Below, one piece after another: positions 3,771 through 35,319 of a stretch of DNA of 64,000 bases; within the stretch, counting starts at the first letter, position 1; the number at the start of each line of letters is the position of its first letter. Location of the stretch: the NCBI GenBank assembly GCA_038105035.1, contig JAYOBT010000005.1:12676-76675 (forward strand). Reading direction: 5' to 3'. The stretch comes from Candidatus Poseidoniales archaeon. GTDB taxonomy: Archaea; Thermoplasmatota; Poseidoniia; Poseidoniales; Poseidoniaceae. Under the pieces are notes generated by a model. It was given only the letters and a program-made list of their open reading frames with translations. It was not told the DNA's origin and searched no databases. The translations under genes and the position numbers were made by a program.

Positions 3771-4076
3771 CTACCACAGGTGTTCCTCAAGAGAACTGTC
3801 ATCGCTAGAAATGACCTTCGTAATTCCACTTTTTATTCGAATTTCTTCGGCATTTTGCCCACTTGACACGAGCATCAAATGTACTGCCCGTCTCCATAAT
3901 CCATCATCAGGATGTGAATCACGATGATCAACAGCAACCAGTATACCATCCAACTCTGCAAACATGAGTGCTCCAAGAGCGTCTTTGATTTCGTCTTGGT
4001 GAAGCAAAATCCACCGAGCTCCTTTCATCTCTTCTCGGACATTGTCGCCGAGTTCCGAGAAGCGAACAATCTTCAT
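3771..4076 (-). CDS. small conserved-looking protein, possibly Roadblock/LC7 (MglB-like) domain
   Basis: IKDALGALMFAELDGILVAVDH resembles the Roadblock/LC7 core (gv.ga.lv..dGl.va). The start is 3 nt after the pelota stop, so the two are probably co-transcribed. The assignment is tentative. Confidence 0.35.
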   Translation of the reverse strand: MKIVRFSELGDNVREEMKGARWILLHQDEIKDALGALMFAELDGILVAVDHRDSHPDDGLWRRAVHLMLVSSGQNAEEIRIKSGITKVISSDDSSLEEHLW

Positions 4077-4079
4077 GTT

Positions 4080-5144: not shown

Positions 5145-5150
5145 CGATGT

Positions 5151-6884: not shown

Positions 6885-6955
6885 TCGGCTATCAAATCAA
6901 CCCCTGTTACCAGGGCGAAACTCTCAATTTTCGAAGGGTTTCAATCCTACGGGTT

Positions 6956-10695: not shown

Positions 10696-10720
10696 TGATG
10701 CAATCGAATGCAACAATCAA

Positions 10721-15021: not shown

Positions 15022-16365
15022 TTAGTTGAGAATGGTTTGCTGCTGTTCTCCAAACAAATTCTTCGCCATTGTTGAAACAACATCCATGTTGTTTGAAAGC
15101 GCAAAATGGAGCTTGACAACAGCAGCCTCAGGCGATGATGTCAAGCCATGTCCAAGAAGCCCAATATCCTGTTGAATGCGTCCTTTTGAGTAGACATTCA
15201 TATTGATGGGGCCGTGAATGCACTGGTTGACCACCAAGGCAGGAATGCTCAAGTTTGCGAGTGCATCGTGGAGTTCGATGTTCTGTGGTGCATCGTTGTT
15301 TGGATCTTCAATCGGTAGATGGCCAAGTCCTGTTCCATGGATGACGAGTGCATTGACATTCGAACCAACAGCATCGTGAATCTCTTGCGGTGTCAACCAC
15401 GGGCCTGCAATCATTTGCCGGATGACTATGTTCTCGTTGAAACGCAGTGCGTTGGTTGTGGATGGTCTTGGTTGGATGGCTGACCTCGCTTCATTGTAGT
15501 GGTCCCCGAGATTGAGGCTGACATCAGAATTCTCGATATGAACTGTCGCAAGTGGCATTGTGTTGACAGGGCGGAAAGCATCCCTTCGGCTCGAATGGAG
15601 TTTACGAACGCCGGTTGCTGCATGGATTGAGCAAGTTCCATCATCGCTCGTTGTATGCATTGAAACAACAACAGCATCGCTGAGTTCACCAGAGGGCTGA
15701 GGCCCTTCTGCTGCCCACTTGACAGCGGAGATGAGGTTCTGTGCAGCATCTGAGGAAGCCCGATCACTCGACCGTTGTGAGCCAACGAAAGCAATGCGTC
15801 CTGGCGGATTGCCGCCGTTTCCACACCACGCAAATGCGACAGCTGAAGCCGTGATGTGGAGTGTATCTGTCCCGTGTGTGACGACGACACCAACGCATCC
15901 ATCAGCAAACGCTTTCTCGGAAGCGTCAATGATTTGATTCCAGTGGTTTGGACGGATATCTTCGCTGAACATGTTTCCGATTTTATGAACGTCAAGGTTC
16001 GCAATGCTCTGGAGTTCAGGAACGTGTTCAACCAGTTCAGACGGTTCAAATTGTGCTGTTACAGCACCGGTTGTGTAGTCGACTTTCGAAGCGATCGTCC
16101 CTCCAGTGTGAACAATACGAACAGTCGGTAAATCTGGATTTGTTGTTGGCATATCAGATCCGATGGATTCAACGATTTTTGGTTGCTCACAGGAAAGGAT
16201 TTCGATCGAGGAAAGAGGGTGGCTAATGTTGTAGCCATTTGCCAATTTGACAGTGATGTGCTCAGCAACTGCTGGGGGCAGTACAACGCCATCAATCTCG
16301 GTGTCACCATCATGCGTTGTGAGTTTGAGGCGAACGTGACTGCCAACATCAGGGGCCTGTGCCAT
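15022..16365 (-). CDS. gatD: glutamyl-tRNA(Gln) amidotransferase subunit D
   Basis: GatD N-domain followed by an asparaginase-type domain (VRIVHTGGTIASKVDYTTGAV, VVTHGTDT). Start set at ATG 16365 (MAQAPDVG...) because the track extension to 16458 runs through the tRNA gene. Confidence 0.85.
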   Translation of the reverse strand: MAQAPDVGSHVRLKLTTHDGDTEIDGVVLPPAVAEHITVKLANGYNISHPLSSIEILSCEQPKIVESIGSDMPTTNPDLPTVRIVHTGGTIASKVDYTTGAVTAQFEPSELVEHVPELQSIANLDVHKIGNMFSEDIRPNHWNQIIDASEKAFADGCVGVVVTHGTDTLHITASAVAFAWCGNGGNPPGRIAFVGSQRSSDRASSDAAQNLISAVKWAAEGPQPSGELSDAVVVSMHTTSDDGTCSIHAATGVRKLHSSRRDAFRPVNTMPLATVHIENSDVSLNLGDHYNEARSAIQPRPSTTNALRFNENIVIRQMIAGPWLTPQEIHDAVGSNVNALVIHGTGLGHLPIEDPNNDAPQNIELHDALANLSIPALVVNQCIHGPINMNVYSKGRIQQDIGLLGHGLTSSPEAAVVKLHFALSNNMDVVSTMAKNLFGEQQQTILN

Positions 16366-16405
16366 GGTGCTTGGAGTGAACTCCAGCCCTTCAACAATCC
16401 GATGG

Positions 16406-16536
16406 TGGTGCCGGGAGCGGGGCTCGAACCCGCGACCTTCGGATGTCTCAGACACCACAAGGGGCTTTGCACGTCATACGATCGCCTTGAAGGCTGCCCT
16501 ATGAGTCCGACGCGCTACCAACTACGCCACCCCGGC
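16406..16536 (-). tRNA. tRNA-Met (or Ile2; anticodon CAT) with a 55-nt intron after position 37 and encoded CCA
   Basis: The reverse complement reads GCCGGGG-TG-GCGT-AGTTGGTA-GCGC-G-TCGGA-CTCATA[55 nt]A-TCCGA-AGGTC-GCGGG-TTCGAGC-CCCGC-TCCCGGC-A-CCA. The intron contains TGAG, complementary to the anticodon region CTCA. Confidence 0.8.
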
Positions 16537-18739: not shown

Positions 18740-18801
18740 GAACACCAGAGAATGGCGAGCATCTTTCAACATTCGGTTTGAATTTTTTCGAGCCGGAATC
18801 T

Positions 18802-18821
18802 CGCCCCCCTATAGGGGGGCG
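18802..18821. promoter_or_regulatory. perfect 20-bp palindrome with a TATA core in a divergent intergenic region
   Basis: CGCCCCCC-TATA-GGGGGGCG lies between rfcS (start 18739, minus strand) and the giant surface gene (start 18870, plus strand). Confidence 0.4.
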
Positions 18822-18869
18822 TGCGCCGAATCAGTCATAACCTTCCACACCTTAGGTCGAACGAGCGCC

Positions 18870-21800: not shown

Positions 21801-24800
21801 AAGACATGGTATTGGCGAGTACGTGCGATTTCTTCCACCAACCAACTCGGAAATTGGTCCGAAACATTCCACTTCAATCTCCCTTCTTTGGTCACGTGGA
21901 ACCTATCATCGACCACTGCTGCTGTTGAAATCCGTCACCATGAAGCCATGCCTGAACTACAACTTCCACACTTCATTGACACCTGGCTTGCCGAAGATGG
22001 CATCGAGGGCCAACAAAACCATTCGGCCTCAACTTCGCTTAAGGTTGGTGAGTTAGGTAGTGGACATCATGCTTCTGCGCTTCTGAAAATTCCTCTGAAC
22101 CAGCTGCCAACACCAAGCAATGCCCGTGTGACCAATGCTGAACTCACCATGTGGGCGCAGTCAGGTTCCGATACCAACGTGCAGGTTGCCGTTCGGCCAG
22201 TCCTTCAAACATGGACTACAGCCCTCAACAATTCCACCTACGATGGCACGAACAACTGGTCTGCCGATGGTGCTCGAGGCATTGGAACAGACGTCGGTTC
22301 ACTGAGCGACCTCAGCGCATCAGCATCGGCAGATTGGATGGATTGGGACGTGACCGAACTTGTGCAAGCAGCGCTTGCCAACGGTGATTCCTATCTCTCC
22401 ATCGCTTTGATGACCAGTGATGCCTCAGACGCTCTGATAACCTTCACAAGTACGGAAGGAGCGTCCAACCAGCGACCTTGGCTCAATCTTACATGGACGG
22501 ACGGAACTGCAACAATTCCAACCGTTGCTGCAAGCAATGCACTTCCAGTGGATGGAGACATGGCTTGGGATTTGAGCACACACGTTCCTGAACCTTCGAC
22601 CCGGCCTGTGATGACATGGACGCACTCCAATGCAGCAAACATCGATGATTGGAAGGTCTTCATCCAAAACGATCCAACCGACATTATGCTAGGGTTCTCA
22701 ATCTACGATTCTCGAACCGATACAGCCATGTTTGACTTGCAGAGCCTTTCATTCCAACCAGCAAATGACCTCGCGACCAACCAAAGCATTCGATGGTTTG
22801 TTCAACCAGTCAACGATGAAATGCTCGGTCCACGTTCGACCAGTTCCGTCTTCCACATCCCACACGACATTGGAAATCAAATCAACAGTACTTGGGGTTA
22901 CATCAACGTCTCCGAAGGAGGCTTCTTGCCAGACCTCAATGAACCGTCAGGATTTGTGACAGATACAACACTCGATTCAGCTGCATCAAACGCGAATCTC
23001 TACAATTCGGGAACCATCAGTGTTGGACGATCATCATACAGTTCTGGATCATCACAACGTTCCTCAACCATCGTTTCCGTTGATTTAACCAAGTTGCCAA
23101 TCAATGGTACGTACGAAATCATGAGTGCTTACTTCACGTTGAGTACGAAGTCGAGCAGTTACGGCGAAGTGTGGTGGAGTGGATCTGTACTCAACACCGC
23201 CTTTGATGGTGATGCGAACTGGAACAATGCCACCAATTCAACGCAGTGGAATTCCCCCGGTGCATACCATTCATCCGACACGGATATCCCGTGGGGCGGA
23301 GCAGGATTGATTGACTCATCGAACGCAACACATCGCGGAAACATTACACCCATGCTTCAACAAGCAGTTGCGAACGGTCTGACAACGTTTGACTTCCTTA
23401 TTCAAGCCGAGGAAAACAACAGCAATGTTGACGGCCGACTGGACTTCTATTCAAGCGATGAAGCGAGTACGGCACTACGTCCTTCTTTGAACATCACGTA
23501 TCGGATGACCAACGCATACATTGATGCTAGCCCAACTGGACTACTGCCAGTTGATGCAACAACCGTTTGGAACTACTCTTCCCCAAGACCATCTGGCGCC
23601 GACCACGTAAACCTGTCATGGACACCACCATCAAACAATGAAACTGGGTTCTACATGTGCTTCGCTTCAGATGCACGTATGATTTACGACCTCAATTGTG
23701 CATCTGTAAACACATCTTCTGGATTCACCGATGGAAATTACACTTGGGATCCAACAAACTCCACATTCACGATCAGAAACCCTACTTCGGCAGATAATTG
23801 GATTTATTGGCGTGTGTTCTCCTTCCAAGAAGTTACCCAAGAGAAATATTACCGGCAAGGTGAGTGGTCGCAAGTCAACACATACCGAGTTCCAGACGAT
23901 CAAGGCTACGACGATGGTGCGGGCAATCACACCGTCAACCTCTCAAGCGGTTCCATCTTCTCCAACACAGGACTGTTACCAGCAGCTCCGGATACGCACA
24001 CCGTTTCTTCTGCATTGAACACAAACTACGGTGGTAGTACGACGCTGAAATTAGGTGCGAGTTCATCCGGCGACCATGAGATCTTCATCGAATTTGATCT
24101 CTCGCAGATGCCATGGCCAAATGCCATGACGCCGACCTCGACCATGCTTCGATTGTATCGAACGCAAGTTGCTGGTATCTCGCCACTGACAGTGAGCGCT
24201 CACGCTTGTTCGACGTTCACGGAATCGAGTGTAACTGCACTTCAACCGCCTTCATGCAGTGCTACAGAAATCACACGGTCGACGCTTTCTGTTACACCTC
24301 CATCTGGATGGCTTGAGTGGGACATTACCTCACTTGCACAATCGAACATAGCGAACGGTAACCAAACCATGACCATCCAACTCAAAGCAGTTGGTTCAGG
24401 AAGCAGTCTGCACACGTTTGCCTCTGGTGAATACGCAACAGAATCTCTGCGTCCAACGCTCCGAATCGATTATGTTGACAACGTTGCTGGTGTTGTTCCA
24501 CCAGCACAACCAGTCTTGCTTTCACCGCTTGATGGTGCTGTGCTGTACGATACGACCAACAACCTCCTAGATTCGCTCGACAAACCAGTTCTCAACTGGA
24601 ACACTGTTTCTGGAGCCACGGGCTACATTGTCACAATCCGTAACGAGTCAGGCCAGTACACCTTCAAATCTGCAACCTCGAGCCAGATTACTGGAACAAG
24701 CTTCACCTTTGCCAACACCGTTGCACCAGGTTCCACCTTTGAGTGGTGGGTCCAAGCGGTCAATGGATCGATTCCAGGACCATCGTCCTCACGATGGGTT

Positions 24801-27800
24801 GTTGGAGTTGGTGACCCACAAACCATGGACAACAACGACCATACATGGACCTATGAGTTCCAAACTGGGAACGAGATTGAAGAACTTGCACACACCAATG
24901 TCCAAGATGTCTCAATCTTCAGTGGCCTGATTGATACAAACCTCGATGGAGACGCCAACGTGATTGGCATCGATGCTGCACAAGACGAATACCGCTTACT
25001 TGTCGATGTCGATTTCGGGCAAATACCGTTTAATCCAAGCATGAACGTTCATGATGTAACCTACAGCATGTATCTCGAAGATTTGAAATTCGGCAGTGGT
25101 GCCACCGGTATGACGCTCTCAGTCCATCGTGTTTTGACCACTGGTTGGTCAGAGACCTCTGCAACATGGAACGGCACGGGTAGCGCTTCTTGGGGTGCTC
25201 AAGGTATGCAGGCTGGAGTTGATTATGATTCCACACCGCTCGATTCCGTCTTCATCAGCAATTCGCAAGTTACGGACACCTGGATTTTCTTTAATTTAGG
25301 GCACAGAATGCTCTACATCGATGGCACACATAGCTGGGTCATTATCGGCACACCGACGCAAGGTTGGATGGAATTGGACTTCAGCGATAACAGCGATGAA
25401 ACGTCCTCAAAGCGTCCCCTTTTGATGATGAATTACACCGATATTGATTCGATTACCATCTCGCCAACTGCTACCTCAACGGATGCTGATTCAACCGTTC
25501 AGTTCAGTGCCTCCACATTTGATTACAATTCTTTGGTTGCGAGTGTTCCCGTTGTTTGGTCGACAAGCAGCGGCAGCATCGACTCGACAGGATTGTTCAC
25601 GCCAACAGCAGTCGGCACCCATACTGTGACTGCATGTTTCGGAGTCATCTGTGAAGATGAAACAGTCACGGTGACACCCGGTGCCCCAGTCGACTTGGTT
25701 GTTACACCTTTGACGGCAACAATTACGACGGATGAAACGCTTGAATTGACTGCAGATGTGGTGGATCAACACGGTAACGCTGTGCCTGGTCAGAGCATCA
25801 CGTTCACGCCGAGCAACGGAACCATGGGTGGCACGTTTGGTGATGTCTTCCAACCTTACGCCGTTGGTGGGCAGACCGTTACTGTCACTTGGCAAACAGA
25901 CTCTATTGTTGTCAACATTCTGGTCGAGTTAGGAGCGCCAACGACCATCGAATTGACAGGATGCGACGGCGTCGTTCCTGCAGGTACTGAATGCGAAGTC
26001 ACAACCACGCTTTACGACCAATTTGGAAACGTCATCCCGCTCACCGAAGCAGGTGCACTCTCCTACTCAGTCAACGATGGATTCTACAGTGAAGCAACGA
26101 GCATGTATTTCGCTGACACCGTAGGCACATGGCAACTCTCTATCACATCGGCAATCGGTCTATCCGATTCGATCACTGTTCAAACAGGTCATGGTCAGAT
26201 GGCTTCTCTGGAAATTGTCCCATCGGTTTGGGACATCACGGCGGACGAAGTTGTCTTCCTCAACACGACCAGAATCGATGTTCAAGGCAACCGGTTGCCT
26301 GTGAACTTGCCACTTGCAAACTGGACTTCCATCGATGATGGCGCACTCAACATCACTCTGGACCATCCAGTCCAGTGGATTCCAAACGGCCTCGGTGCTC
26401 GAGTGATTTCAGCACAGTATGAAACCACGTTTGCATCGATAACGATCAACGTCTCCAAGGGTGTCATGGTCGATATGGTGCTTATCGTTGATTCAAACGA
26501 TGCAGACGACCAAACGTTCGGTATTACTGCTGATGAAACGCTTGTTGTCAAGGCCAAAGCAAGCGATGGAAAAGGCAACCGCTGGACCATCGATGTCAAC
26601 TGGACCGTTGCTCACCCAGACTGGAGCGAACAATCTGTGTTGCTGTATCCATTGTCCGATGAGACCGAATTTATGCCTGTCTTGGCCTCTTCAACTGCCT
26701 ATGTCATTCGTGCTGAATACACGTATGATGGCCAACTGTTCAGCGAGATTGTGAACGTTGAAGTTTCGGAAGGCATCATCCAAGTCTTCACAATGAACAC
26801 GATTGCTTCCAATGGAGACACTGGATCGGTCTACAACATCAGTGCCGACCATTCGATTGATTTCTCTGTCGCTCTTAGTGACGGCGATTTGAACCCGCTC
26901 AGTGTTGATGTCCTGACATGGCTGTTCGAGGATACAGATTCTGGAACTGTCACCGATATCACAACCGACTTCGTCGCCGATGGCTATCAATGGGAAGCGA
27001 CAACTGTAGGAAACTATCGATTGTTGGCTTATGTTGAGAATGCTGATGGATTCAACTACACACGTTCCGTTGACATCTCAGTATACCACGGAATCGCCGT
27101 ATCGCTCGACCATGAACTCAACACGTTTGATGAGGATGCAGGTGAATCGATTGATATCACCATTACTGGTACAGACAGCGATGGAAACACCTTCCCACAA
27201 GATGTCGAATGGGAAGAGGATGGTTCCTTGTCAGATCGTGTGATTCCAGGCGATGATCCTGGTACTTACATCTACCAAGCATCTGCTGCTGGAGACCACG
27301 TCATGGTATATTCAACCCCGAGTGCTTCAAACACATTCGACCTGAAGATTTCACCCCAGATGATTGTCGATTTCATCGAAGTTGAGCTGTCCGCCGTCAC
27401 GGTTGAGCAACAGGCTTCCATCGAGGTAACGGTTCAAGCGTTTGATCGATTTGCCAACCCGATTCCAGTTCCGAGCAGTGCTCGTGTTGACGCAACTGGA
27501 CGCGGTACGGCCGAAAGTACTGGCCAGGGCACATGGAAGGTGACAACCTTGGACAGTGGTCCTCAAATCATCACAGTATCCGCAGGTCAAGTTAGTGAAG
27601 ATTTCAATATTGAAGTCACAGGCACACTCGGTGGATTCTTTGCAGCAGGTGGAACATTGTATTACATCGGGGCAGTGTTGATTGGACTCATCGTTGCCGT
27701 GCTTGTTGGCCTCCTCGTTATGGCCTTGCGCTCAGGTCGAGGTGATGACGATTGGGACGACGACTATGATGACGATGAGGATGACGAACCACGCTCCTCT

Positions 27801-28037
27801 CCTGGTCCGTCTGGACCAGCACCCGGTCCATCTGGCCCAGCACCTGGTCCAAGTGGTCCGGCTCCGGGTACAGGTCCGTCAGGATCACCACCACAGGAAG
27901 AGGAAGAGAAGGAAGACACCAGTTGGATGGTTGACCACCGAACCGATGACGATGGTACTGAGTGGGCTCAAAGCGAAGATGAGACGTGGTACTACCGAGA
28001 ACCTGGACAGAGTGATTGGGTCGAGTGGCAGGATTAG
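18870..28037 (+). CDS. giant (3,055-aa) secreted, C-terminally TM-anchored surface protein: repeated DTYxD/NYG beta-sandwich plus FN3-like modules, an Ig-like array and an acidic Pro/Trp-rich tail
   Basis: An uninterrupted ORF. Start set at ATG 18870, which gives the signal peptide MRNSTTNRNVFTAVTLILMFLFADVFVPSAFP. TM helix at about 27631-27733; stop at 28035-28037. Confidence 0.85.
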   Translation: MRNSTTNRNVFTAVTLILMFLFADVFVPSAFPAPEVLEEEPTVQHVISTISPTLDTYIDSDNPNDDYAGEDTGLLGVSGTSDARLLLSFPLNFASTDTIHSARLDLVCSNTGATNGLAVYPASTSVTWDENATWNSRDGMLMWGEPGADDGTDRSDWEPPIVTSPLGPSGGSSNVQLNVTALAQSAVASSASALEILVSALGSQYDCAMNETLNIPDRPSLRVDSSTATAGSGGTIAPNFVDDGAPLMSDDFYLTADLTPSMTWDSYSGIFAEVQLSMDDGFKSDEDNYNWLYNTDAHASSFTVSGTTGALDIPSSDAFDNGTFMHYRMRAMDSTGTLSSWEQGSFFLPTHDVTANNDGTASIAVDVNDLADDVDFIEDTYVDEDNKNDNFGTVSTLVTQVTSTRETISHLRVNFDRLGLHTNATIIEASLNLTRSTSSGSATLALHEMDTVDVWSEGDATWRRPTSNQLWDDGGREYLGYATESGVMGSQTSDDFSFDLTSMLQQYLDNSGPDSLDFALTARSQNGAYAANNGVDSVTFHSSDAFNEGDKPQLYIKYDWSSPVTVAPSLTSPWDGETLWNQTGHNFTGNTTPTLTWASSTSSSYDMIFELSTDSLFHDRIARIDTRTDTEFAPSDGEVSFTGLDSLEAGHMYNWRMLHVDSNNRHGEWSYSSFLISAMNSTWLGGDRYEFRLKQGNASSDGLHPACADTYIDSGMPSSNYGSETELQVSYNTIPSETTVLFGCDLSTTFLPSGYAVESANLELYLSDFPFGTPVVGAWENTQHGWTEDGATWATYDGTNTWNSVGAKGNERSSLLDSVSIGSGFTSSSSANWNVTLAVQNAMRNNHSADFILGIIGAGSGQIRDVLFHTGAAIDAKRPELSFVYVPGSNAIPIEPVPVLPLNGSWSVADGVNPEPIYRPLMNWTHSTGVGVSGYAVQMDTVNTFDSSAMSIETSWSNSGFDLTNNSFTPTSDLDDGKTWYWRVRAISSTNQLGNWSETFHFNLPSLVTWNLSSTTAAVEIRHHEAMPELQLPHFIDTWLAEDGIEGQQNHSASTSLKVGELGSGHHASALLKIPLNQLPTPSNARVTNAELTMWAQSGSDTNVQVAVRPVLQTWTTALNNSTYDGTNNWSADGARGIGTDVGSLSDLSASASADWMDWDVTELVQAALANGDSYLSIALMTSDASDALITFTSTEGASNQRPWLNLTWTDGTATIPTVAASNALPVDGDMAWDLSTHVPEPSTRPVMTWTHSNAANIDDWKVFIQNDPTDIMLGFSIYDSRTDTAMFDLQSLSFQPANDLATNQSIRWFVQPVNDEMLGPRSTSSVFHIPHDIGNQINSTWGYINVSEGGFLPDLNEPSGFVTDTTLDSAASNANLYNSGTISVGRSSYSSGSSQRSSTIVSVDLTKLPINGTYEIMSAYFTLSTKSSSYGEVWWSGSVLNTAFDGDANWNNATNSTQWNSPGAYHSSDTDIPWGGAGLIDSSNATHRGNITPMLQQAVANGLTTFDFLIQAEENNSNVDGRLDFYSSDEASTALRPSLNITYRMTNAYIDASPTGLLPVDATTVWNYSSPRPSGADHVNLSWTPPSNNETGFYMCFASDARMIYDLNCASVNTSSGFTDGNYTWDPTNSTFTIRNPTSADNWIYWRVFSFQEVTQEKYYRQGEWSQVNTYRVPDDQGYDDGAGNHTVNLSSGSIFSNTGLLPAAPDTHTVSSALNTNYGGSTTLKLGASSSGDHEIFIEFDLSQMPWPNAMTPTSTMLRLYRTQVAGISPLTVSAHACSTFTESSVTALQPPSCSATEITRSTLSVTPPSGWLEWDITSLAQSNIANGNQTMTIQLKAVGSGSSLHTFASGEYATESLRPTLRIDYVDNVAGVVPPAQPVLLSPLDGAVLYDTTNNLLDSLDKPVLNWNTVSGATGYIVTIRNESGQYTFKSATSSQITGTSFTFANTVAPGSTFEWWVQAVNGSIPGPSSSRWVVGVGDPQTMDNNDHTWTYEFQTGNEIEELAHTNVQDVSIFSGLIDTNLDGDANVIGIDAAQDEYRLLVDVDFGQIPFNPSMNVHDVTYSMYLEDLKFGSGATGMTLSVHRVLTTGWSETSATWNGTGSASWGAQGMQAGVDYDSTPLDSVFISNSQVTDTWIFFNLGHRMLYIDGTHSWVIIGTPTQGWMELDFSDNSDETSSKRPLLMMNYTDIDSITISPTATSTDADSTVQFSASTFDYNSLVASVPVVWSTSSGSIDSTGLFTPTAVGTHTVTACFGVICEDETVTVTPGAPVDLVVTPLTATITTDETLELTADVVDQHGNAVPGQSITFTPSNGTMGGTFGDVFQPYAVGGQTVTVTWQTDSIVVNILVELGAPTTIELTGCDGVVPAGTECEVTTTLYDQFGNVIPLTEAGALSYSVNDGFYSEATSMYFADTVGTWQLSITSAIGLSDSITVQTGHGQMASLEIVPSVWDITADEVVFLNTTRIDVQGNRLPVNLPLANWTSIDDGALNITLDHPVQWIPNGLGARVISAQYETTFASITINVSKGVMVDMVLIVDSNDADDQTFGITADETLVVKAKASDGKGNRWTIDVNWTVAHPDWSEQSVLLYPLSDETEFMPVLASSTAYVIRAEYTYDGQLFSEIVNVEVSEGIIQVFTMNTIASNGDTGSVYNISADHSIDFSVALSDGDLNPLSVDVLTWLFEDTDSGTVTDITTDFVADGYQWEATTVGNYRLLAYVENADGFNYTRSVDISVYHGIAVSLDHELNTFDEDAGESIDITITGTDSDGNTFPQDVEWEEDGSLSDRVIPGDDPGTYIYQASAAGDHVMVYSTPSASNTFDLKISPQMIVDFIEVELSAVTVEQQASIEVTVQAFDRFANPIPVPSSARVDATGRGTAESTGQGTWKVTTLDSGPQIITVSAGQVSEDFNIEVTGTLGGFFAAGGTLYYIGAVLIGLIVAVLVGLLVMALRSGRGDDDWDDDYDDDEDDEPRSSPGPSGPAPGPSGPAPGPSGPAPGTGPSGSPPQEEEEKEDTSWMVDHRTDDDGTEWAQSEDETWYYREPGQSDWVEWQD
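19014..25440 (+). repeat. protein-level super-repeat (six full units and one half unit, period ~0.94-1.03 kb)
   Basis: The module-initiating D-T-x codons sit at 19032, 20004, 20994, 21978, 22962, 23991 and 24933. The copies have diverged, so this is not a nucleotide-identical repeat. Confidence 0.6.
27801..27863 (+). repeat. 3 x 21-nt imperfect tandem repeat encoding (PGPSGPA)x3
   Basis: cctggtccgtctggaccagca / cccggtccatctggcccagca / cctggtccaagtggtccggct, followed by a degenerate fourth unit. Confidence 0.8.
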
Positions 28038-28045
28038 GTGATCAC

Positions 28046-30640
28046 ATGAATCAGCAACGGACTGCACTCTTTTTGTGTAGCCTAATGCTCATTTCAGTCG
28101 TCGCAACACTCCCAGCAGCAGCGGGAGGGCCTCCTGCACAGATTGTGATTTCAACGCCATCTACCGTTATTTCATCCGATGGTGTCTTGCAGATGGAGGC
28201 CACATTGTATGACGCCCTGAACAATGTTGTCGATGGTGAAATCACGTGGTCTGCAACAAATGGAACCATCGAAGATAGCGGTTTGTTCTTCCCTTGGTCA
28301 GCGGGCCAAGTGACCATTCGGGCTGAGCATGCAGGGTTCAATGACACTGTTGTAGTCACCGTCCAAGCTGGCTTTGGTCAATCCATTGCCATCAACACAT
28401 CCGCTCATCCTCGGGCAAAATTCCCGTTCACCTTGCAAGCAAATCTCATCGATTCGCATGACAACCCCCGGCCGGGACAAGATGTTGTTTGGACCGTCGA
28501 TGGCCTCTATGTTGGACAAGGCGAACCGTCTTGGACGCCCCCTTCACTTGGTTTGTATGAAGTGGTTGCTCGATACGATCAGTTGGAACAGCGCGTGACC
28601 ATGGAAGCCATTGCTGGTGATCCTTACGAGTTCTCTTTCCCATCTGATTTGGTTCTACGAAGTGGTGAAGGCATGCAACTTTACCCTGATTTGCTCGATT
28701 CCTTTGGTCAAAAGATGAACAACACGCTCGCTGGGAACAAGGCTTGGACGGTCGAAAATGGAACGATTACACCTGTTGGCTACTATTATGCCTCAGCCCC
28801 TGGCATCTGGAATCTTTCCGTGCGTGCTGGCTCGGTTTGGGGCAACAGCACCATTCGAGTGGTTCCTGCTGATGCATCCATCGTCGAGATTCAGATTACG
28901 CCTGAAGCAGAAACCTATGTTTCCGGAGAAGTCTATCGCCTCGATGCCATTCGCACAGATTCGCAAGGTTACTCTTCCCCAGTTCCGGTTCCTATTGGAA
29001 ATTGGACCGTAGGCAATGGTATTCTGTCACAAGCCGATGATGAAGTGCATTGGACACCCGGACAAGCCGGAGAATTCACCTTGCACGTCGTTGATTCAGA
29101 TGTCCCAGCAACCATGAACGTCGACGTGATGCATGGTTCTGCTGATGCTACACGCTTGGTTCCAAGCCAATCAAGTGTAACAGCAGGAACGCAACTCGTT
29201 TTGGTGCATGAAGCCATCGACTCCTTCGGAAATGTGTGGCAGGTCGATGCCAATATCTCACAAACTGAGGGCGTTCACGCGGGTGTTGACATCTTCTCGT
29301 CGTATGTTTCCGTGATGCCAAAGGAAATGGAAACCATTGGCTTCACTGCCGACTACATCGACACAAACTCAGGTGCAATGTTCCAATCCGTTTGGTCGAA
29401 AGATGTTGAACCAGGCCGCCTCGCCTTCATTGAATTGCCCGAGTCAGGCACAGAAGTTGCAGCAGATTCTTATCTGGATTTCGACCCAGAATTCACCGAT
29501 GCATACGGGAACAGCATTCCCTATGTGGCTGTTAATTGGACCATATCTGGTGCGGACCGGACCCTCGAAATTCGGATGGCAGATGGGAAATGGTACCCAA
29601 CCCAAACCGGTGAGCACGAAGTTCGTGCCAATGCGGATGGTGTCTTTGCGTCAGTTCGCATTAACGTGGTTCCTGGGTCTGGGACTTCCTTGGTATCCGA
29701 TAGTGACGATGGCTTAACCATCGAAGCGGGCGTCCCATTCGATTTGTTTGTCGAACTAGTTGATGTCCATGGGAACACCGCTCCAGCAGAAAACGTCGAA
29801 CTGATGAGCGGTGAGTATGTTGTCTTGGAGGCTTCCTCAAGTGGCCGTGGTTTCTGGCAACTCACCGGACTTACCAGTGGATTCTACGAACTCGACATTG
29901 CAGAAGGTGAAGCAGAACATTCCATTCCACTTACCATTGTTCCAGGTCAACCCGTCCGAGTCATCACCGGCATGAGCAACGAAACCAGAAGCCAAGGTGA
30001 AGTGACACTCATCACCATATGGGCTGAAGATTCTCAAGGAAATCGAGTTGAAGTCAATCCAGATCAAACCTCGCTTTCCTGTACCTCTGGCAAGGCAACA
30101 CACGTCAAATCGGACACTTGGGAAATTGAACTCGAAGAGGCGGGCGCTGATCGTTCTTGCACAGTTACATGGAATGGATTGATTTCGCAACAATTCTATG
30201 ATGTTGAATCGGTTCTTCTCGGCGGCGCACTGGGTTCAACGAACATGGCCGTGTCGATCATTATCGCTCTAATGCTGCTTATTTTCGTCGTTCTTGTTGT
30301 CCTAATTCGCCGTGGGATTTCAAAAGATGAAGAGTGGGATGAAGAAGAATTCTACGAAGTTTCTGAAGATGATGAAGAACGTTTGGTTGAAAGTGATGAC
30401 GATGCAGTCGAGATGGACGTTCAGGCACCTACGGAAGCACGTGTGGTCGAAGCAACCAATGCGGAACCTGCGCTCGAAGGTACTCTGCGCCAAGAATTGG
30501 CAACAAAAGCAGGCCAGGTCGGTGTTATGCAAGCCGCTCCCGGCACGCAGCAAGGTGAAACAGGATGGTATGTTGATGCGAGCACTGAACTGCAATACTG
30601 GAATGTCGGTCCTGATGGATCTTGGACTCGCGTTCAATGA
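28046..30640 (+). CDS. secreted, C-terminally TM-anchored protein made of Ig-like (Big_2-like) repeats with an acidic Trp-motif tail
   Basis: Signal MNQQRTALFLCSLMLISVVATLPAAAGG, with GGTGA 6 nt upstream of ATG 28046. About eight ~85-aa repeats of the type V.V.P......G..L....A...D..GN. TM helix AVSIIIALMLLIFVVLVVLI. Confidence 0.8.
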   Translation: MNQQRTALFLCSLMLISVVATLPAAAGGPPAQIVISTPSTVISSDGVLQMEATLYDALNNVVDGEITWSATNGTIEDSGLFFPWSAGQVTIRAEHAGFNDTVVVTVQAGFGQSIAINTSAHPRAKFPFTLQANLIDSHDNPRPGQDVVWTVDGLYVGQGEPSWTPPSLGLYEVVARYDQLEQRVTMEAIAGDPYEFSFPSDLVLRSGEGMQLYPDLLDSFGQKMNNTLAGNKAWTVENGTITPVGYYYASAPGIWNLSVRAGSVWGNSTIRVVPADASIVEIQITPEAETYVSGEVYRLDAIRTDSQGYSSPVPVPIGNWTVGNGILSQADDEVHWTPGQAGEFTLHVVDSDVPATMNVDVMHGSADATRLVPSQSSVTAGTQLVLVHEAIDSFGNVWQVDANISQTEGVHAGVDIFSSYVSVMPKEMETIGFTADYIDTNSGAMFQSVWSKDVEPGRLAFIELPESGTEVAADSYLDFDPEFTDAYGNSIPYVAVNWTISGADRTLEIRMADGKWYPTQTGEHEVRANADGVFASVRINVVPGSGTSLVSDSDDGLTIEAGVPFDLFVELVDVHGNTAPAENVELMSGEYVVLEASSSGRGFWQLTGLTSGFYELDIAEGEAEHSIPLTIVPGQPVRVITGMSNETRSQGEVTLITIWAEDSQGNRVEVNPDQTSLSCTSGKATHVKSDTWEIELEEAGADRSCTVTWNGLISQQFYDVESVLLGGALGSTNMAVSIIIALMLLIFVVLVVLIRRGISKDEEWDEEEFYEVSEDDEERLVESDDDAVEMDVQAPTEARVVEATNAEPALEGTLRQELATKAGQVGVMQAAPGTQQGETGWYVDASTELQYWNVGPDGSWTRVQ

Positions 30641-32631
30641 CGGTCAGTGATCTCATGGGTGTAGAAGAACATCGAAACTGGGACGATGTTGATTATTCCA
30701 AATTGATGAGTGGGCAAGCATTCCCAAGCAATTTCATGTGGGGTGTAGCTACAGCCTCGCACCAAATTGAGGGTGGAAACTCCAACAATTGGACTCGATT
30801 TGAACCCGGTTCGAAAAGCGGCCAAGAGAGCGGTGATGCCTGCGATCACTGGAACCGCAAAGAGCAAGATGTTCAACTCATCAAAGACTTGAATGTCACG
30901 CACTACAGGTTTTCACTCGAATGGAGCCGTATCGAACCTGAGATGGGTACTTGGAATCAAGATGCCATCGATTGGTACAGCGACCTTGTCGATCAACTTC
31001 TTTACAACGGAATCCAGCCCATGGTCACACTCCATCACTTTACAAATCCACTCTGGTGGGAAGACATGGGCGCGTTTGAAGATGAAGCAAACATACTCTA
31101 TTGGATTCGATTTTGCTCCAAGATGTTTGAAGTGCTAAGTGACCGAGTTGAGTGGTGGTGCACCATCAATGAACCTGCTGTTTATGCTTCAATGGGGTAT
31201 GTATTGGGGGAATTTCCCCCTGGTGAGCGTTCCTTCAAGAAAACACGAGTGGTTTCATTGAACCTGATGCGAGCGCATGCTCGATGCTATCGGACGCTCA
31301 AGTCAATGGAGAATGGAGCGTCAAGAAAGATTGGATTGGTGAAGAACATCAACATCTTTGATGCGTATCGGCGCTGGAATCCATTGCATCGTTTCCAAGC
31401 AAAGCTCTTGGATGGGATGTTCAACCGATGTTGGATTGATGGTCTGAAAACCGGCCGTTTCAAGCCACCCTCAGCATTCAGGAGCGTTTCTATTGATGGC
31501 CTCAAAGGGAGCAGCGATTTCATCGGCGTGAATTACTACACGCATCTACTCACAACACCATTCATGCCGACCAAGGTTGAGATCGACCCACTCATCCGAC
31601 CTTGGGAGGAACGAACAGATTTCCGCTATCCCATGTATGCTGAAGGGTTGAAGCGTGCATTTGAGATGGTCGCCCCATTGAACATACCAATCATCGTGAC
31701 CGAAAACGGGGTTGCTGATGATGATGATGACATGCGCCCCGAGCATGTCCGGAGACATTTGCAAATCACTGCGGAAGCCATTGGCGATGGTCATGATATC
31801 CGGGGATTCTACCATTGGAGTTTGATGGACAATTTCGAATGGGCCGAGGGATATGAACAGTGTTTTGGATTGTACCATGTTGATTTTGAAACCCAACAAC
31901 GAACGCTTCGTGAGAGTGGGAAGTTGTATGCGGGTATTGCTCAATCGCATCGAATGCCACAAGTGGTTATCCTTGCAGGTGGGCTTGGCACCAGACTTGG
32001 TGACTTGACCAAAAACCAACCAAAGTCATTGATTGAAGTCGCAGGTCAACCTATCTTGGCCCATATCCTCGACTGGGTCAAAGAGCAAGGCTGCAATCGT
32101 GTACTCGTTTTAACAGGACATCATGGTGAACAATTCGAAGGGTTCCATTATCCGGGTATCGACATGACCTTTGTCCAAGAACAGGAGCAATTAGGTACTG
32201 GAGGTGCACTTTGGAACGCTCGTGATTACTTGGAAGAGGAATTCATATTGTTGTGGGGTGACGATTACCACCCAATTCAATATGCGCCATTGATTCATCG
32301 CCATCGAGCAGCAAACTCGACGTTGACCATGACCGTGACAACCGAACATCAAGACAAGAACCTGCACTATGCTGATGGTCGATTGGTTGATTATGGTAAG
32401 CATGACGATGTCCCAGAGGAATTCAATGGATACGAAGCAGGAACGTCCATTGTGAAGAAATCGGTGATCGATGAACACGGTAAAGAGGGCAAGTGGTCAT
32501 GGGAAAAGACGGTATATCCAACCATGTCGAACAACATCCATGTCCATCTTGACAACACAAAATTTTGGGACATGGGGACGCCAGAACGCCTCGAACGCTT
32601 AGAGGAATTCTTCAACGAATCCAGGTCGTGA
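30637..32631 (+). CDS. fusion protein: GH1 beta-glycosidase (N-terminal ~440 aa) plus sugar-1-phosphate nucleotidyltransferase (C-terminal ~230 aa)
   Basis: GH1 motifs: FPSNFMWGVATASHQIEGG, acid/base TINEP (about 31167) and nucleophile VTENG (about 31698). From about 31954 the sequence reads MPQVVILAGGLGTRLGDLTKNQPKSLIEVAG...LGTGGAL...WGDD, a nucleotidyltransferase. The ATG at 30637 overlaps the upstream stop (ATGA). Confidence 0.8.
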   Translation: MTVSDLMGVEEHRNWDDVDYSKLMSGQAFPSNFMWGVATASHQIEGGNSNNWTRFEPGSKSGQESGDACDHWNRKEQDVQLIKDLNVTHYRFSLEWSRIEPEMGTWNQDAIDWYSDLVDQLLYNGIQPMVTLHHFTNPLWWEDMGAFEDEANILYWIRFCSKMFEVLSDRVEWWCTINEPAVYASMGYVLGEFPPGERSFKKTRVVSLNLMRAHARCYRTLKSMENGASRKIGLVKNINIFDAYRRWNPLHRFQAKLLDGMFNRCWIDGLKTGRFKPPSAFRSVSIDGLKGSSDFIGVNYYTHLLTTPFMPTKVEIDPLIRPWEERTDFRYPMYAEGLKRAFEMVAPLNIPIIVTENGVADDDDDMRPEHVRRHLQITAEAIGDGHDIRGFYHWSLMDNFEWAEGYEQCFGLYHVDFETQQRTLRESGKLYAGIAQSHRMPQVVILAGGLGTRLGDLTKNQPKSLIEVAGQPILAHILDWVKEQGCNRVLVLTGHHGEQFEGFHYPGIDMTFVQEQEQLGTGGALWNARDYLEEEFILLWGDDYHPIQYAPLIHRHRAANSTLTMTVTTEHQDKNLHYADGRLVDYGKHDDVPEEFNGYEAGTSIVKKSVIDEHGKEGKWSWEKTVYPTMSNNIHVHLDNTKFWDMGTPERLERLEEFFNESRS

Positions 32632-33432
32632 TGAAACGATAACTTCGTGTTCTGGAAGAACCGATTCGTTCTCAACAAGAACGAGAATCATGCCGCCGAA
32701 ACCACCACCCATCATTCGAGCGCCATGTACGCCATCAATGGATTGTAGGGATTCGACAAGAGCGTCAACTTTGGTTGTACTCACGCCGATTGTTTTCAAT
32801 GATTCGTGTGTTGCATTGAGAAGTTTTCCTAGCGCTTCCTTGTTGGAATCCAACGCTTCTTCGACACGACGATTCTCGGATTCTATGTGATTTCGCTTTG
32901 TCAATTCATTCGAAGTATTCCGATAATCTTCAGAATTCAAAGATCGATGAAGTCCTGAATCAACGAGTTTGAAGATCCAGTCAGGTGGTAGTGCGATCGT
33001 TGTTGAGGTCTTCGTTGAGAAGTCGATGAGGACGCAATGCTCCTCAAGAGAATGCATCATCGTCATTTGATCGAGCAAGCCACAAGGTGTTCCAAGTACA
33101 ACATGCTCCAGTCTTTGTGCTTCTTCACATGCGTCTTGTTTGCTAATGCTGTCTCCATGAACGCACAGAACTACACTCAAGCACAGTGCGGCAGATGAAG
33201 ACATGCCTTTCCCAATTGGAATCGTGCTTGATACCTCCAACTGGGCGGGAGGTCCTCCTGCTTCTCTCCACAATGCCACCACCTCTGGGTCACCGCTGAA
33301 TCCACTTTCAAGAAATTCAGCTTCAAGCACAAGCCGATGTTGGGATGCGAATGCAAGCGAAAGCCCACCCGCATAATCGGTGTGCTCGCCAATGATGTTG
33401 ATTCGACCGGGGATGGATGCACGCCGTTTCAT
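32599..33432 (-). CDS. GHMP-family sugar kinase, short galactokinase-like
   Basis: Galactokinase signature GRINIIGEHTDYAGG, GHMP ATP motif PIGKGMSSSAAL and motif III GARMMGGGFGGMILVL. It is only 277 aa. Confidence 0.75.
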   Translation of the reverse strand: MKRRASIPGRINIIGEHTDYAGGLSLAFASQHRLVLEAEFLESGFSGDPEVVALWREAGGPPAQLEVSSTIPIGKGMSSSAALCLSVVLCVHGDSISKQDACEEAQRLEHVVLGTPCGLLDQMTMMHSLEEHCVLIDFSTKTSTTIALPPDWIFKLVDSGLHRSLNSEDYRNTSNELTKRNHIESENRRVEEALDSNKEALGKLLNATHESLKTIGVSTTKVDALVESLQSIDGVHGARMMGGGFGGMILVLVENESVLPEHEVIVSSRPGFVEEFL

Positions 33433-34400
33433 GCAAGCACATCCTCAGTTCTGTCGAGGTCGAACCAGACGGGATAGTGATCAGATACATCCGAGTCGCT
33501 CATGTCCCTATCGACGCCCCAACGTCCGAAGAATCGGTCCTCAATATCGCTTGTTAGGACAATCCGATCGTAGGCACAATGTGTGTTTTCTGAGAAGGTT
33601 GTATCCGCAGAGTCCGGTACGACCCAGAGATATTCTGGGCTTCGAATCTCAAGTTGATTCAATTCATAGGTCGAAGCATAACTGCAATCTGCATTGAAAT
33701 CACCAAGAAGGATGATGTCGGATTCGGTTGAATTTTGTTTGAATGTTTCAACGACATGATGCAGAGCAGCCGTTTCATTAACCGCATTGGCAGGTTTGGT
33801 ATGTACTGTGATGAATGTCATATCTTCGAGCACTGTTCCATTTTGTGAGAGGAGTTTGAACGATGAAATGTACGGTTCCCTTTGAAATTCATCCAACTCT
33901 GAATCGTTGTGTAACCAGGCAGAATCCAACTGGAAATACGATGTTCGATAGTAGAATGCATACTGTTCTTGTCCTCCCTGGTCGTCTTCTTGTTGCCCAG
34001 AACGTTCACTCAAGGCCATAGCATAGGTTTCATTTGATGCTGAATTGATGGCATCAAGGAAGTCGTAAGGGACGGTCTGATCAAGATCTTTGATTTCTTG
34101 AACGACCACCATATCATAACGTAGGGTAATGTTGACAAGTTCCGAAACAACATCCGCTTTGCTCATTTTCGTCTCACCAAAGACTTTGATGTTGAAGGTT
34201 GCAATTCGTGCAACATCTTCGCGACTTCGTGACTCAGCGCGTGCTTCAGCATCTTCATCTTCTTCTCCCTCAACTTCAACGTAGACGGTTTTCCACAGTG
34301 GGCTTTCATCTTGGTGGACCAAAAGTTGGATGGTCATTGGAAAGAGTACCAACAAGGCTACGAGCATAACGCCTTGCAACGCGTTGTCATGCCGTGCCAT
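33429..34400 (-). CDS. membrane-anchored DNase I-family (EEP) nuclease
   Basis: N-terminal TM helix VMLVALLVLFPMTIQLLV. DNase I blocks follow: IATFNIKVFGETKMSK, VVQEIKD, TVHTKP, LLGDFNADCSY, VPDSADTT, CAYDRIV, SDHYPVWFDL. Confidence 0.85.
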   Translation of the reverse strand: MARHDNALQGVMLVALLVLFPMTIQLLVHQDESPLWKTVYVEVEGEEDEDAEARAESRSREDVARIATFNIKVFGETKMSKADVVSELVNITLRYDMVVVQEIKDLDQTVPYDFLDAINSASNETYAMALSERSGQQEDDQGGQEQYAFYYRTSYFQLDSAWLHNDSELDEFQREPYISSFKLLSQNGTVLEDMTFITVHTKPANAVNETAALHHVVETFKQNSTESDIILLGDFNADCSYASTYELNQLEIRSPEYLWVVPDSADTTFSENTHCAYDRIVLTSDIEDRFFGRWGVDRDMSDSDVSDHYPVWFDLDRTEDVLA

Positions 34401-34488
34401 GGCGTTGCATAAACTCCAATGTTATCAATCATCAAGGTTCATCGTGGACCAAGCATAGGTTCTTGACGCGAATCTCTTTGGTTGCAAC

Positions 34489-35319
34489 ATGGCTGAAGAG
34501 GTCTCTCCAGAAAAGGCGAAGGAAATCGTCGAGATGTTGACAGGAGGCGGTTCAATCGAATCCATCAACACCTCTCTTGCACTTGGGATCTTACCACTGG
34601 TCGAATCCATTGGCGACATGGATCTTTTGCATCGATTGGTCGAACATGCCGAGCAAGTCGCAGAAGATGACATTGAGAAAGGTTGGGCACGGTTCGAGCA
34701 TCTGAAGCGATATACAGGATCCATCGATGATGTTGCAGAATTAGCATTCCATGCTGAATCCTTGCAAAATGGTGCTCCTCTCGCAGCTGCAGTTCTCCAT
34801 CATCACGCACTGATGCTGCTCTCCATCGAGGAGATTGAGTCGGCACAAACCTCCATTCGTCGTTCTCTAACGTTACGAGAATCCATCGAAGATCAGGAAG
34901 GCATTGTTTACGGCTTGGCAGTACTCTCACGCTGTTCGCGACTCAATCAAGATTGGGATTCCGCCATCATCCATGATACCCGCAGGCTTGAATTGGCCAT
35001 ATCCATGCAGAACGATGTCCTCCGCATGGAGGCACTTGCAGATGTTGCTCATGCACAAGCTAGTATCGGTGAACTCGCTACAGCGAGTGAAATGTACCAA
35101 GAAAGTCTTGACTTTGCTAAGCGGCTTGAACATCCCGCTGGTCATCTCGTAGCTAGTTGGGGTCTTGCGGACCTTGCCGAAATTGAGACCAGATACGACG
35201 ATGCCCTGCTGACTTTATCGGATACAATGCACCTGTTCATGCAACTTGGGATCCCTGCCCCGGACCTGCTGAAAAAACGACTCCATGCTCTCACATCACT
35301 CGGTGAAGAAGTCAACTGA
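34489..35319 (+). CDS. helical-repeat (TPR-like) protein, hypothetical
   Basis: Repeated Ala/Leu-rich helix pairs (ALADVAHAQASIGELATASEMYQESLDFAKRLEH...). I did not recognise a catalytic motif. Confidence 0.45.
   Translation: MAEEVSPEKAKEIVEMLTGGGSIESINTSLALGILPLVESIGDMDLLHRLVEHAEQVAEDDIEKGWARFEHLKRYTGSIDDVAELAFHAESLQNGAPLAAAVLHHHALMLLSIEEIESAQTSIRRSLTLRESIEDQEGIVYGLAVLSRCSRLNQDWDSAIIHDTRRLELAISMQNDVLRMEALADVAHAQASIGELATASEMYQESLDFAKRLEHPAGHLVASWGLADLAEIETRYDDALLTLSDTMHLFMQLGIPAPDLLKKRLHALTSLGEEVN

Follow-up and report, generated by a model that had tools for sequence, protein, structure and literature searches.

A DNase I-family protein of Marine Group II archaea with a predicted surface anchor and a loop shared with prokaryotic homologues

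The textbook member of the DNase I family is the animal enzyme, the pancreatic form of which is a cleaved and secreted glycoprotein. The family has also been catalogued in prokaryotes: in a 2015 survey, Alzbutas et al. (PMC4486849) gathered some 300 prokaryotic members of InterPro IPR016202, grouped in 86 UniRef90 clusters. Archaea are represented in that survey by Methanohalobium, Methanococcoides, Methanoplanus and a thaumarchaeote, and Poseidoniales are absent from it (PMC4486849). DNaseTA of Thioalkalivibrio sp. K90mix was shown to be a Ca2+/Mg2+-dependent DNase that is inactivated by the H134A substitution (PMC4486849). A 2022 analysis of the origins of DNase1 does not mention prokaryotes (PMC9208542), and our literature searches found no paper linking Marine Group II (MGII; Poseidoniales) to DNase, extracellular nuclease or dissolved DNA. 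Here, we describe a DNase I-family gene from Candidatus Poseidoniales archaeon (Poseidoniaceae), encoded within a 64,000-nt stretch of contig JAYOBT010000005.1 (assembly GCA_038105035.1, forward-strand positions 12,676 to 76,675), hereafter the window. The gene is located on the minus strand at window positions 33429..34400 and is complete, with 323 codons and a TGA stop, as judged from the open reading frame (ORF) and its translation, from matches to DNase I with E-values of about 1e-39 and from orthologues at 80 Poseidoniales loci. The latter come from a genome scan covering one genome per GTDB species with a 14-sequence alignment, in which all locus results refer to the best 80 of 453 genomes encoding relatives. 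The MGII protein is a new member of a catalogued but scarcely studied prokaryotic part of the family, with a distinctive loop and a predicted membrane anchor. It is probably a cell-surface deoxyribonuclease that likely degrades dissolved or particle-bound DNA, a reading in which we infer activity, topology and role.

The catalytic domain spans residues 63–316 (33453..34214, minus strand), as delimited by a Pfam match, alignment with bovine DNase I and Foldseek. In a phmmer search against all PDB sequences, residues 65–312 matched residues 2–256 of bovine and human DNase I with E-values of 1.1e-39 to 7e-39, DNase1L3 matched with an E-value of 4e-34, and no other proteins were among the PDB matches. 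Bovine DNase I is 34% identical over 263 residues in BLASTP (E = 3.5e-48). A profile of 21 MGII orthologues retrieved DNase I with an E-value of 2e-51, versus 6e-4 for the next EEP structure, EEPD1. The AlphaFold2 model of the protein, built on 21 orthologues, has a mean per-residue confidence (pLDDT) above 75 in each 10-residue block of the catalytic domain except residues 71–80 (59), and values above 80 in its core. In Foldseek, DNase I and DNase1L3 structures account for all of its ten top PDB matches (E-values of 4e-24 to 3e-21, target TM-scores of 0.83–0.87, root-mean-square deviations of 2.6–3.1 Å); EEPD1, CNOT6L and TDP2 come after them with much weaker scores. The protein has full-length homology to bovine and human DNase I (PDB 1DNK, 2DNJ, 4AWN) and to DNase1L3 (7KIU), with the same fold and the same catalytic set. 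These results confirm that it is a true member of the DNase I family and not a generic EEP enzyme. An earlier note on this DNA, written from the sequence alone, had recognised the family by blocks remembered from the bovine enzyme. All of the quoted blocks (RIATFNIKVFGETKMSK, VVVQEIKD, TVHTKP, LLGDFNADCSY, VPDSADTT, CAYDRIV and SDHYPV) are present in the 323-residue ORF, and their bovine counterparts agree with the PDB sequence of DNase I in the alignment. The assignment is borne out by the PDB search, the MGII profile and Foldseek, which place DNase I far above other EEP enzymes with similarity beyond the level of motifs.

The family databases are less specific. Pfam assigns only the broad Exo_endo_phos family (PF03372, residues 67–308), and all NCBIfam matches, namely, MnuA, CdtB and ExeM/NucH, are below threshold. 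Membership of the MnuA family (NF045851) is ruled out by a partial match over residues 66–200 (E = 3e-13) that reaches 50.4 bits against a curated cut-off of 185. CdtB (NF011787; 21.5 bits versus 189) and ExeM/NucH (NF033681; 16.9 bits versus 300) are likewise ruled out; both are EEP-fold nucleases acting on DNA and match only marginally. Mycoplasma MnuA is a membrane-associated EEP nuclease as well, but its similarity is weak and partial, and MnuA proteins are lipoproteins of host-associated bacteria. Of the two PROSITE DNase I signatures, both of which match bovine DNase I, signature 2 (GDFNAxC[SA]) is found at residue 233, whereas signature 1, around His134, is not matched, the MGII protein having ITVHTKP versus VALHSAP.

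Residue mapping places bovine N7, E39, E78, H134, D168, N170, D212, D251 and H252 at N70, E102, E145, H200, D234, N236, D278, D307 and H308, respectively. Of the nine catalytic and metal-binding positions, seven show no variation among the 21 MGII sequences, and six of these seven (all but D234) are likewise without variation in 45 diverse prokaryotic sequences. His200 (codon at 33801..33803), the equivalent of catalytic His134, is without exception in both sets. His308 (33477..33479), corresponding to catalytic His252, is the sole catalytic or metal position that varies within MGII (20/21, with Asn in one sequence, P0028). A clade-wide loss of His308 was ruled out, since genomic loci of the same clade encode His, including one that is 99.7% identical to P0028, and the motif SDH[YF]PVW is found in 76 of the 80 loci. 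The GDFNADCS motif occupies residues 233–240 (33681..33704), exactly where the earlier note had put it, as codon arithmetic from G233 to S240 confirms; it carries metal ligands Asp234 and Asn236 and Cys239, equivalent to bovine D168, N170 and C173. Cys239 and Cys275 (33576..33578; bovine C209) are the only cysteines of the protein and are invariant in MGII, and the conserved pair predicts an essential disulfide. Ca2+ site II of bovine DNase I is complete (D99, D107, F109 and E112 correspond to D166, D170, F172 and E175), and site I (D201, T203, T205, T207) is mostly kept as D266, T268 and T273, with the T205 equivalent being variable or gapped; two structural Ca2+ sites may thus be expected. 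DNA-contacting R111, Y175 and Y211 are retained as R174, Y241 and Y277. Across the 21 MGII and 45 diverse prokaryotic sequences, the key mapped positions are invariant or nearly so. The suggestion of an intact active site therefore stands, together with the disulfide cysteines and the Ca2+-binding residues, those of site I for the most part. Ca2+ site II, most of site I, the Cys173–Cys209 pair and GDFNADCS are features shared with bovine DNase I. The bovine Cys101–Cys104 loop, by contrast, is absent, and among six mapped actin-contact positions, those of H44, Y65, V67 and A114 differ, while D53 and E69 are kept.

The most distinctive element of the MGII protein is an enlarged loop, QQEDDQGG (residues 136–143; 33972..33995, minus strand), with the conserved pair Asp139–Asp140, which marks a subfamily. 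It takes the place of the metazoan RNSY loop, by which Tyr76 of DNase I enters the minor groove of DNA. Measured between the equivalents of G72 and E78, the loop of the window protein is 11 residues long (GQQEDDQGGQE), versus seven in the bovine enzyme (GRNSYKE, including Tyr76). We compared this loop in 13 Poseidoniales sequences, 44 bacterial and archaeal sequences designated group A, 25 of group B and 87 of the metazoan group. It has 11 residues in Poseidoniales (10 in two of the 13), with the Asp-Asp pair in 12/13, and a median of 11 residues (range 6–14) in group A, where 26/44 sequences carry the pair; the long form follows the pattern GxQxDDxxSQE. The short form has seven residues, GR[ST]xSKE, and the pair is found in none of the 25 group B sequences and in one of the 87 metazoan-group sequences. 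A four-residue insertion, usually with Asp-Asp, is therefore common to Poseidoniales and group A, and metazoan DNase I lacks it.

Identity points in the same direction. Searched exhaustively, 1.84 billion cluster representatives yielded 255 clusters at E ≤ 1e-30 and, with the threshold relaxed to E ≤ 1e-3, 2379. The nearest relatives outside Poseidoniales are 42–53% identical to the window protein, versus 34% for bovine DNase I, and come from Myxococcota, Planctomycetota, Bacteroidota and another archaeon. Those with names are bacterial (‘Deltaproteobacteria’, Polyangiales, Phycisphaerae, Reichenbachiella, Bacteroidales), and the archaeal one, P0128 (53% identical), is assigned to another archaeon because its contig encodes a TATA-binding protein. 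In these long-loop homologues, for which an extracellular location is predicted, the GxQxDDxxSQE loop is found together with the Cys pair and the full set of catalytic residues. Sequences from metazoans (Styela, Seison, Aplysia, Convolutriloba, cattle) fall into a cluster of their own, with 34–40% identity. DNaseTA resembles the MGII protein in being a prokaryotic, acidic and predicted extracellular DNase I-family protein from a saline habitat, but belongs to a distant subgroup, with roughly 25–34% identity to family representatives, as estimated over about 120 N-terminal residues of a sequence damaged in optical character recognition. It has GDFNL in place of GDFNADCSY, a double helix-hairpin-helix (HhH) domain at the C-terminus and a signal peptide that is cleaved. 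Similarity to animal DNase I is much closer for the MGII protein, which lacks an accessory DNA-binding domain and has a predicted membrane anchor. In a neighbour-joining tree with 100 bootstraps, the monophyly of Poseidoniales, including the MGIIb representative P0127, receives 84% support. The tree also groups Poseidoniales with the long-loop homologues, but the deep nodes are weak (15–28%), so that affiliation with the bacterial homologues rests mainly on the loop indel and the ranking of identities. From these sequence features, we place the gene in a prokaryotic long-loop DNase I subfamily, which is delineated here. The shared insertion and the higher identity to prokaryotic relatives lead us to reject transfer from metazoa, one of two origins that had been offered for what the earlier note called a eukaryote-type enzyme; the other, an overlooked prokaryotic DNase I lineage, is the correct one, while the tree that was to decide between them upholds the unity of Poseidoniales and leaves their deep placement with little bootstrap support. 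Group B, with its short loop, is at least partly bacterial, as judged from the context of a single 4.4-Mb contig with bacterial-type genes, on which a homologue (positions 4071–7035) is located beside an Endonuclease_NS gene and IS elements. This one context hints that the short-loop form typical of animals exists in bacteria too.

The gene belongs to the archaeal genome in which it was found. The window encodes a PolD small-subunit-like protein, an eRF1-family protein, the RFC small subunit, LonB and an archaeal A24 peptidase. It also contains a 128-nt match to the Rfam tRNA model (56 bits; 16409–16536, minus strand), which is not reported by ARAGORN and overlaps the end of ORF 15022..16458; its length implies a candidate intron-containing, archaeal tRNA. 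The exact protein is not present in the protein collection searched, where the best matches are 91% identical and named Candidatus Poseidoniaceae. The best 80 loci are all from Poseidoniales, including Thalassarchaeaceae and the 2012 MG-II assembly CM001443.1, and the MGIIb representative P0127 is 57–60% identical to the Thalassarchaeaceae loci. In about 75 of the 80, the nuclease gene is divergently oriented beside the same TPR gene, beyond which follow the same 410-residue protein, asparaginase II, aldehyde dehydrogenase and PanB. Pairwise ratios of nonsynonymous to synonymous substitution rates (dN/dS) against the closest orthologues are 0.03–0.06, a sign of strong purifying selection. The gene is vertically inherited and maintained in Poseidoniales, being neither a contaminant nor a recent import. 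The claim that the DNA is archaeal holds on the strength of the PolD, RFC, eRF1-family and LonB genes, the intron-bearing tRNA and the synteny. The remark that such an enzyme is unusual for archaea was overstated, however, given the conservation of the gene across Poseidoniales and the archaeal family members tabulated in 2015 (PMC4486849). Two of the loci carry bacterial labels (L004, CALDQY010000023.1, Rhodobiaceae; L007, CAXQWT010000042.1, Salipiger bermudensis). The archaeal gene block is complete in both, with roughly 90% identity, and they are most likely misbinned Poseidoniaceae contigs.

How the enzyme might work can be outlined from these features. A single N-terminal helix would be inserted in the membrane with its short, positively charged N-terminus inside (type II topology), and an acidic disordered linker of about 30 residues would hold the 255-residue DNase I domain outside the cell. 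His200 and His308 would act as the catalytic pair, with Asn70, Glu102, Asp234, Asn236, Asp278 and Asp307 placed around the catalytic Mg2+, and the two putative structural Ca2+ sites and the predicted Cys239–Cys275 disulfide would support the domain. Double-stranded DNA would be nicked and cut to 5′-phosphorylated oligonucleotides. Seawater contains about 10 mM Ca2+ and 50 mM Mg2+ and could supply the cofactors. The same divalent cations probably bridge DNA to the surface of the enzyme, possibly via the conserved Asp-Asp loop: the ectodomain is very acidic (48 D/E versus 18 K/R), with a net charge of about −30 versus −9 for DNase I. Dissolved or particle-bound DNA near the cell would then be broken down as a source of phosphorus, nitrogen and carbon, and such scavenging appears to be the most economical reading of the role. 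DNase function is supported by the domain fusions among relatives within the subfamily, as bacterial members are joined to S1/P1 nuclease (P0285, P0287, P0290, P0139, P0333), to Endonuclease_NS (P0306) or to ComEA-like HhH DNA-binding domains, and one relative adjoins a separate Endonuclease_NS gene. The bacterial long-loop homologue P0130 has an integrase, TrbH and a restriction-endonuclease-like gene in its surroundings, a context that suggests carriage on a mobile element.

Several observations weigh against this proposal. The mean pLDDT of the AlphaFold2 model is only 76. The position of Tyr76 is Gly or Ser in most MGII sequences (G, S or Y overall), and with the acidic loop remodelled in this way, substrate preference or metal dependence may differ from those of the animal enzyme. 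Tyr76 is, however, not universal even among animal homologues, since the metazoan-group sequences have Ser at this position in 65/87 cases and Tyr in 13/87; the difference thus bears on details of mechanism, not on homology. The strongly acidic ectodomain comes without an accessory DNA-binding domain, a module that has been argued to help acidic DNases bind DNA at high salt (PMC4486849). The DNase activity of the MGII protein and of the long-loop subfamily as a whole is one that we infer from sequence. No conserved neighbour for nucleotide processing or uptake was found at the loci examined, which leaves the nutritional role without support from genomic context.

That last observation also opens the way to a surface DNase with a non-nutritional role, such as processing of DNA for uptake, loosening of a DNA-rich particle or biofilm matrix when cells attach or detach, or destruction of foreign DNA. 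Models for such functions exist. EndA is a membrane nuclease of pneumococcal transformation, and mycoplasma MnuA and the streptococcal wall-anchored nucleases are anchored EEP enzymes acting on host or matrix DNA. Neither a nucleotidase nor a transporter gene is linked to the nuclease at any of the loci examined, and the abundance of giant adhesin-like surface proteins in the window would fit a particle-associated lifestyle. On the other hand, the nuclease and its neighbours matched none of the defence-system models of PADLOC-DB at E ≤ 0.01, no competence genes were seen nearby, and the gene is rare in viral contigs (three relatives in 2.9 million). We regard a purely non-nutritional role as unlikely, though it deserves some weight; the two kinds of role are not mutually exclusive.

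The placement of the enzyme at the cell surface depends on how its N-terminus is read. Residues 1–32 (34305..34400, minus strand) consist of a short N-terminus, MARHDNALQ, presumably cytoplasmic, and a hydrophobic helix, and residues 33–62 (34215..34304) form an acidic linker predicted to be disordered. Residues 10–28 are the most hydrophobic 19-mer of the protein (mean Kyte-Doolittle value of 2.44), preceded by Arg3 and followed by an acidic stretch, and AlphaFold predicts a helix at residues 4–32 and disorder at 33–58. The linker has 11 D/E versus 4 K/R and pLDDT below 50, varies among orthologues in length and sequence, and evolves with a dN/dS roughly double that found elsewhere in the protein. 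The helix and acidic-linker layout is retained in the MGIIb orthologues. A cleavable Sec signal peptide, from which the enzyme would be released as a soluble secreted DNase, is what precedent would predict: most characterised DNase I-family enzymes are secreted, signal peptides are predicted for most prokaryotic members, including the Methanohalobium protein (PMC4486849), and the hydrophobic segment is at the extreme N-terminus. However, the hydrophobic run of about 19 residues and the helix 4–32 exceed the h-region of a typical signal peptide, and no small-x-small cleavage motif is present after the segment, which is followed by LLVHQDES. Moreover, the segment is nearly invariant: across MGIIa, conservation reaches 90% or more at 15 of the 29 N-terminal positions, and the dN/dS of the segment, 0.01–0.05, equals the low level of the catalytic domain, so purifying selection is equally strong on both. 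It can also be argued, though not from data, that a released enzyme would lose its products for a dilute planktonic cell. A cleaved and released enzyme is rather improbable on these grounds, and near-invariance, low dN/dS and the missing cleavage motif lead us to regard the segment as a type II anchor that is not cleaved off and differs in these respects from the usual signal peptide.

An extracellular location of the catalytic domain is suggested by three further features. The density of N-X-S/T sequons (1.86 per 100 residues) is the highest in the window, resembling that of the giant putative surface proteins and about fourfold that of cytoplasmic proteins; the ectodomain is probably glycosylated, with N90, N123, N165, N187, N208 and N223 as candidate sites. 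The two cysteines are at disulfide positions, and the bacterial relatives bear lipoprotein-like or secretion signals. The hydrophobic segment that the earlier note took for a transmembrane anchor, and the acidic linker, are present in the protein, and hydropathy, the AlphaFold model, conservation and dN/dS are consistent with a cell-attached ectoenzyme. The MGII protein would therefore differ from pancreatic DNase I in being tethered through an acidic linker, and from the bacterial long-loop members in lacking both their lipoprotein-like or secretory signals and the nuclease or HhH fusions that some of them have. The other archaeal long-loop member, P0128 (429 residues, encoded at 6001–7290 of its locus, L081/L082), begins with a lipobox-like sequence and closes with a hydrophobic tail, a putative membrane segment, whose last residues are RRPRNA; this may represent a different anchoring solution for the same enzyme.

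The substrate of the protein could also differ from DNA. An enzyme of DNase I fold might act on another phosphodiester, such as RNA, lipids like sphingomyelin or phosphorylated sugars, and this would be compatible with the broad Pfam assignment, the remodelled Tyr76 loop and the unmatched signature 1. We consider it very unlikely, because any other EEP structure trails DNase I in similarity by more than 45 orders of magnitude, the DNA-contacting residues R174, Y241 and Y277 are kept together with Ca2+ site II and most of site I, and members of the subfamily are fused to other nucleases and DNA-binding HhH domains. Recent acquisition from an animal or another eukaryote, or contamination of the assembly with eukaryotic or bacterial DNA, can practically be dismissed: the 34% identity to mammalian DNase I, the near-identical motifs and the bacterial labels of metagenome-assembled genomes on two near-identical loci are outweighed by archaeal flanking genes, a gene order shared by about 75 Poseidoniales genomes (MGIIa and, rearranged, MGIIb), uniform GC content over the locus, the presence of the loop insertion in bacterial and not in metazoan homologues, prokaryotic nearest relatives and the archaeal synteny block that both mislabelled contigs contain in full.

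The value of a surface DNase in these organisms lies partly in its ecological implication. The uncultured Marine Group II archaea rank among the most abundant archaea of the plankton, published surveys of their genomes stress the use of protein, lipid and polysaccharide, and seawater holds a sizeable amount of organic phosphorus and nitrogen as dissolved DNA. If our reading is true, a surface-tethered DNase I adds DNA to the list of MGII substrates, and the gene is a concrete, clonable target with which the use of DNA by MGII can be tested. A very acidic DNase I, if active in seawater-like ions, could also serve as a salt-tolerant reagent, which was the motivation of the work on DNaseTA (PMC4486849). 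For the family itself, close relatives of the textbook animal enzyme prove to be widespread in prokaryotes, keeping the Cys pair, Ca2+ site II with most of site I, and GDFNADCSY, and animal DNase I gains a large sister group among prokaryotes. Taken together, and only as a tentative proposal that we would not yet favour, both Poseidoniales families examined might display surface DNase I and be a major, hitherto overlooked sink for dissolved DNA and the phosphorus in it; the Asp-Asp loop form might represent a seawater-adapted, metal-bridged DNase I chemistry; and prokaryotes might make up most of the DNase I family, within which the animal enzymes would be a single derived branch.

Upstream of the nuclease gene, a TATA-box-like element, ATTGATAA, is found at 34422..34429 on the minus strand, 22–29 nt before the ATG, and is a putative promoter of a leaderless transcript. 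In the alignment of 14 MGIIa intergenic regions, the motif reads ATT[G/C]ATAA, with alignment positions T68, T69, A71, T72 and A73 invariant, and this conservation suggests that the nuclease gene has its own promoter and a leaderless mRNA. A second non-coding motif of 17 nt, CGCGTCAAGAACCTATG as read on the minus strand (34454–34470), is located 19–35 nt upstream of the divergent TPR gene (34489..35319, plus strand). Across the 14 MGIIa loci it is nearly invariant, including those whose TPR protein has only about 45% identity, and could be a promoter or a regulator-binding site.

Downstream, the nuclease gene is followed on the same strand by a GHMP-family sugar kinase (32599..33432; Pfam GHMP_kinases_N/C and GalKase_gal_bdg). 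Its ATG overlaps the nuclease stop in the ATGA at 33432–33429, as the minus-strand sequence GCATGAAACGG shows. This overlap, which the earlier note had pointed out, is real. Within the clade sharing at least 70% protein identity, the kinase is adjacent in 32 of 34 loci, and in the other two (L018, L034), the sequence ends inside the DNase gene. Other MGIIa genomes have SDR, hydrolase and class II (Asp/Lys/Asn-type) tRNA synthetase genes downstream, while one MGIIb locus has a kinase and a nucleotidyltransferase upstream of the DNase gene, in a different arrangement. Since the adjacency is limited to the one clade, we rejected a functional link between the nuclease and the kinase as unlikely. 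A 373-residue database protein, P0030, combines the C-terminal part of the DNase with a galactokinase signature and is probably an artefact of gene calling or a frameshift at the ATGA overlap.

Beyond the kinase, a GH1 beta-glucosidase fused to a sugar-phosphate nucleotidyltransferase domain is encoded at 30622–32631 (plus strand), convergent with the 277-residue galactokinase-like GHMP kinase. At the MGIIb locus L077 (5220–5933), the nucleotidyltransferase is unfused, and its pair with the kinase is again beside the DNase gene. The window also contains very large plus-strand ORFs (18738–28037, 10667–13426, 28016–30640, 47856–51842 and 52748–56236), all with C-terminal hydrophobic segments. 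The giant ORF of 3099 residues has five CBM96 modules, and others have Ig or cadherin-like domains. Their products are probable surface adhesins and are rich in N-glycosylation sequons, except for that of 52748–56236 (0.00 per 100 residues).

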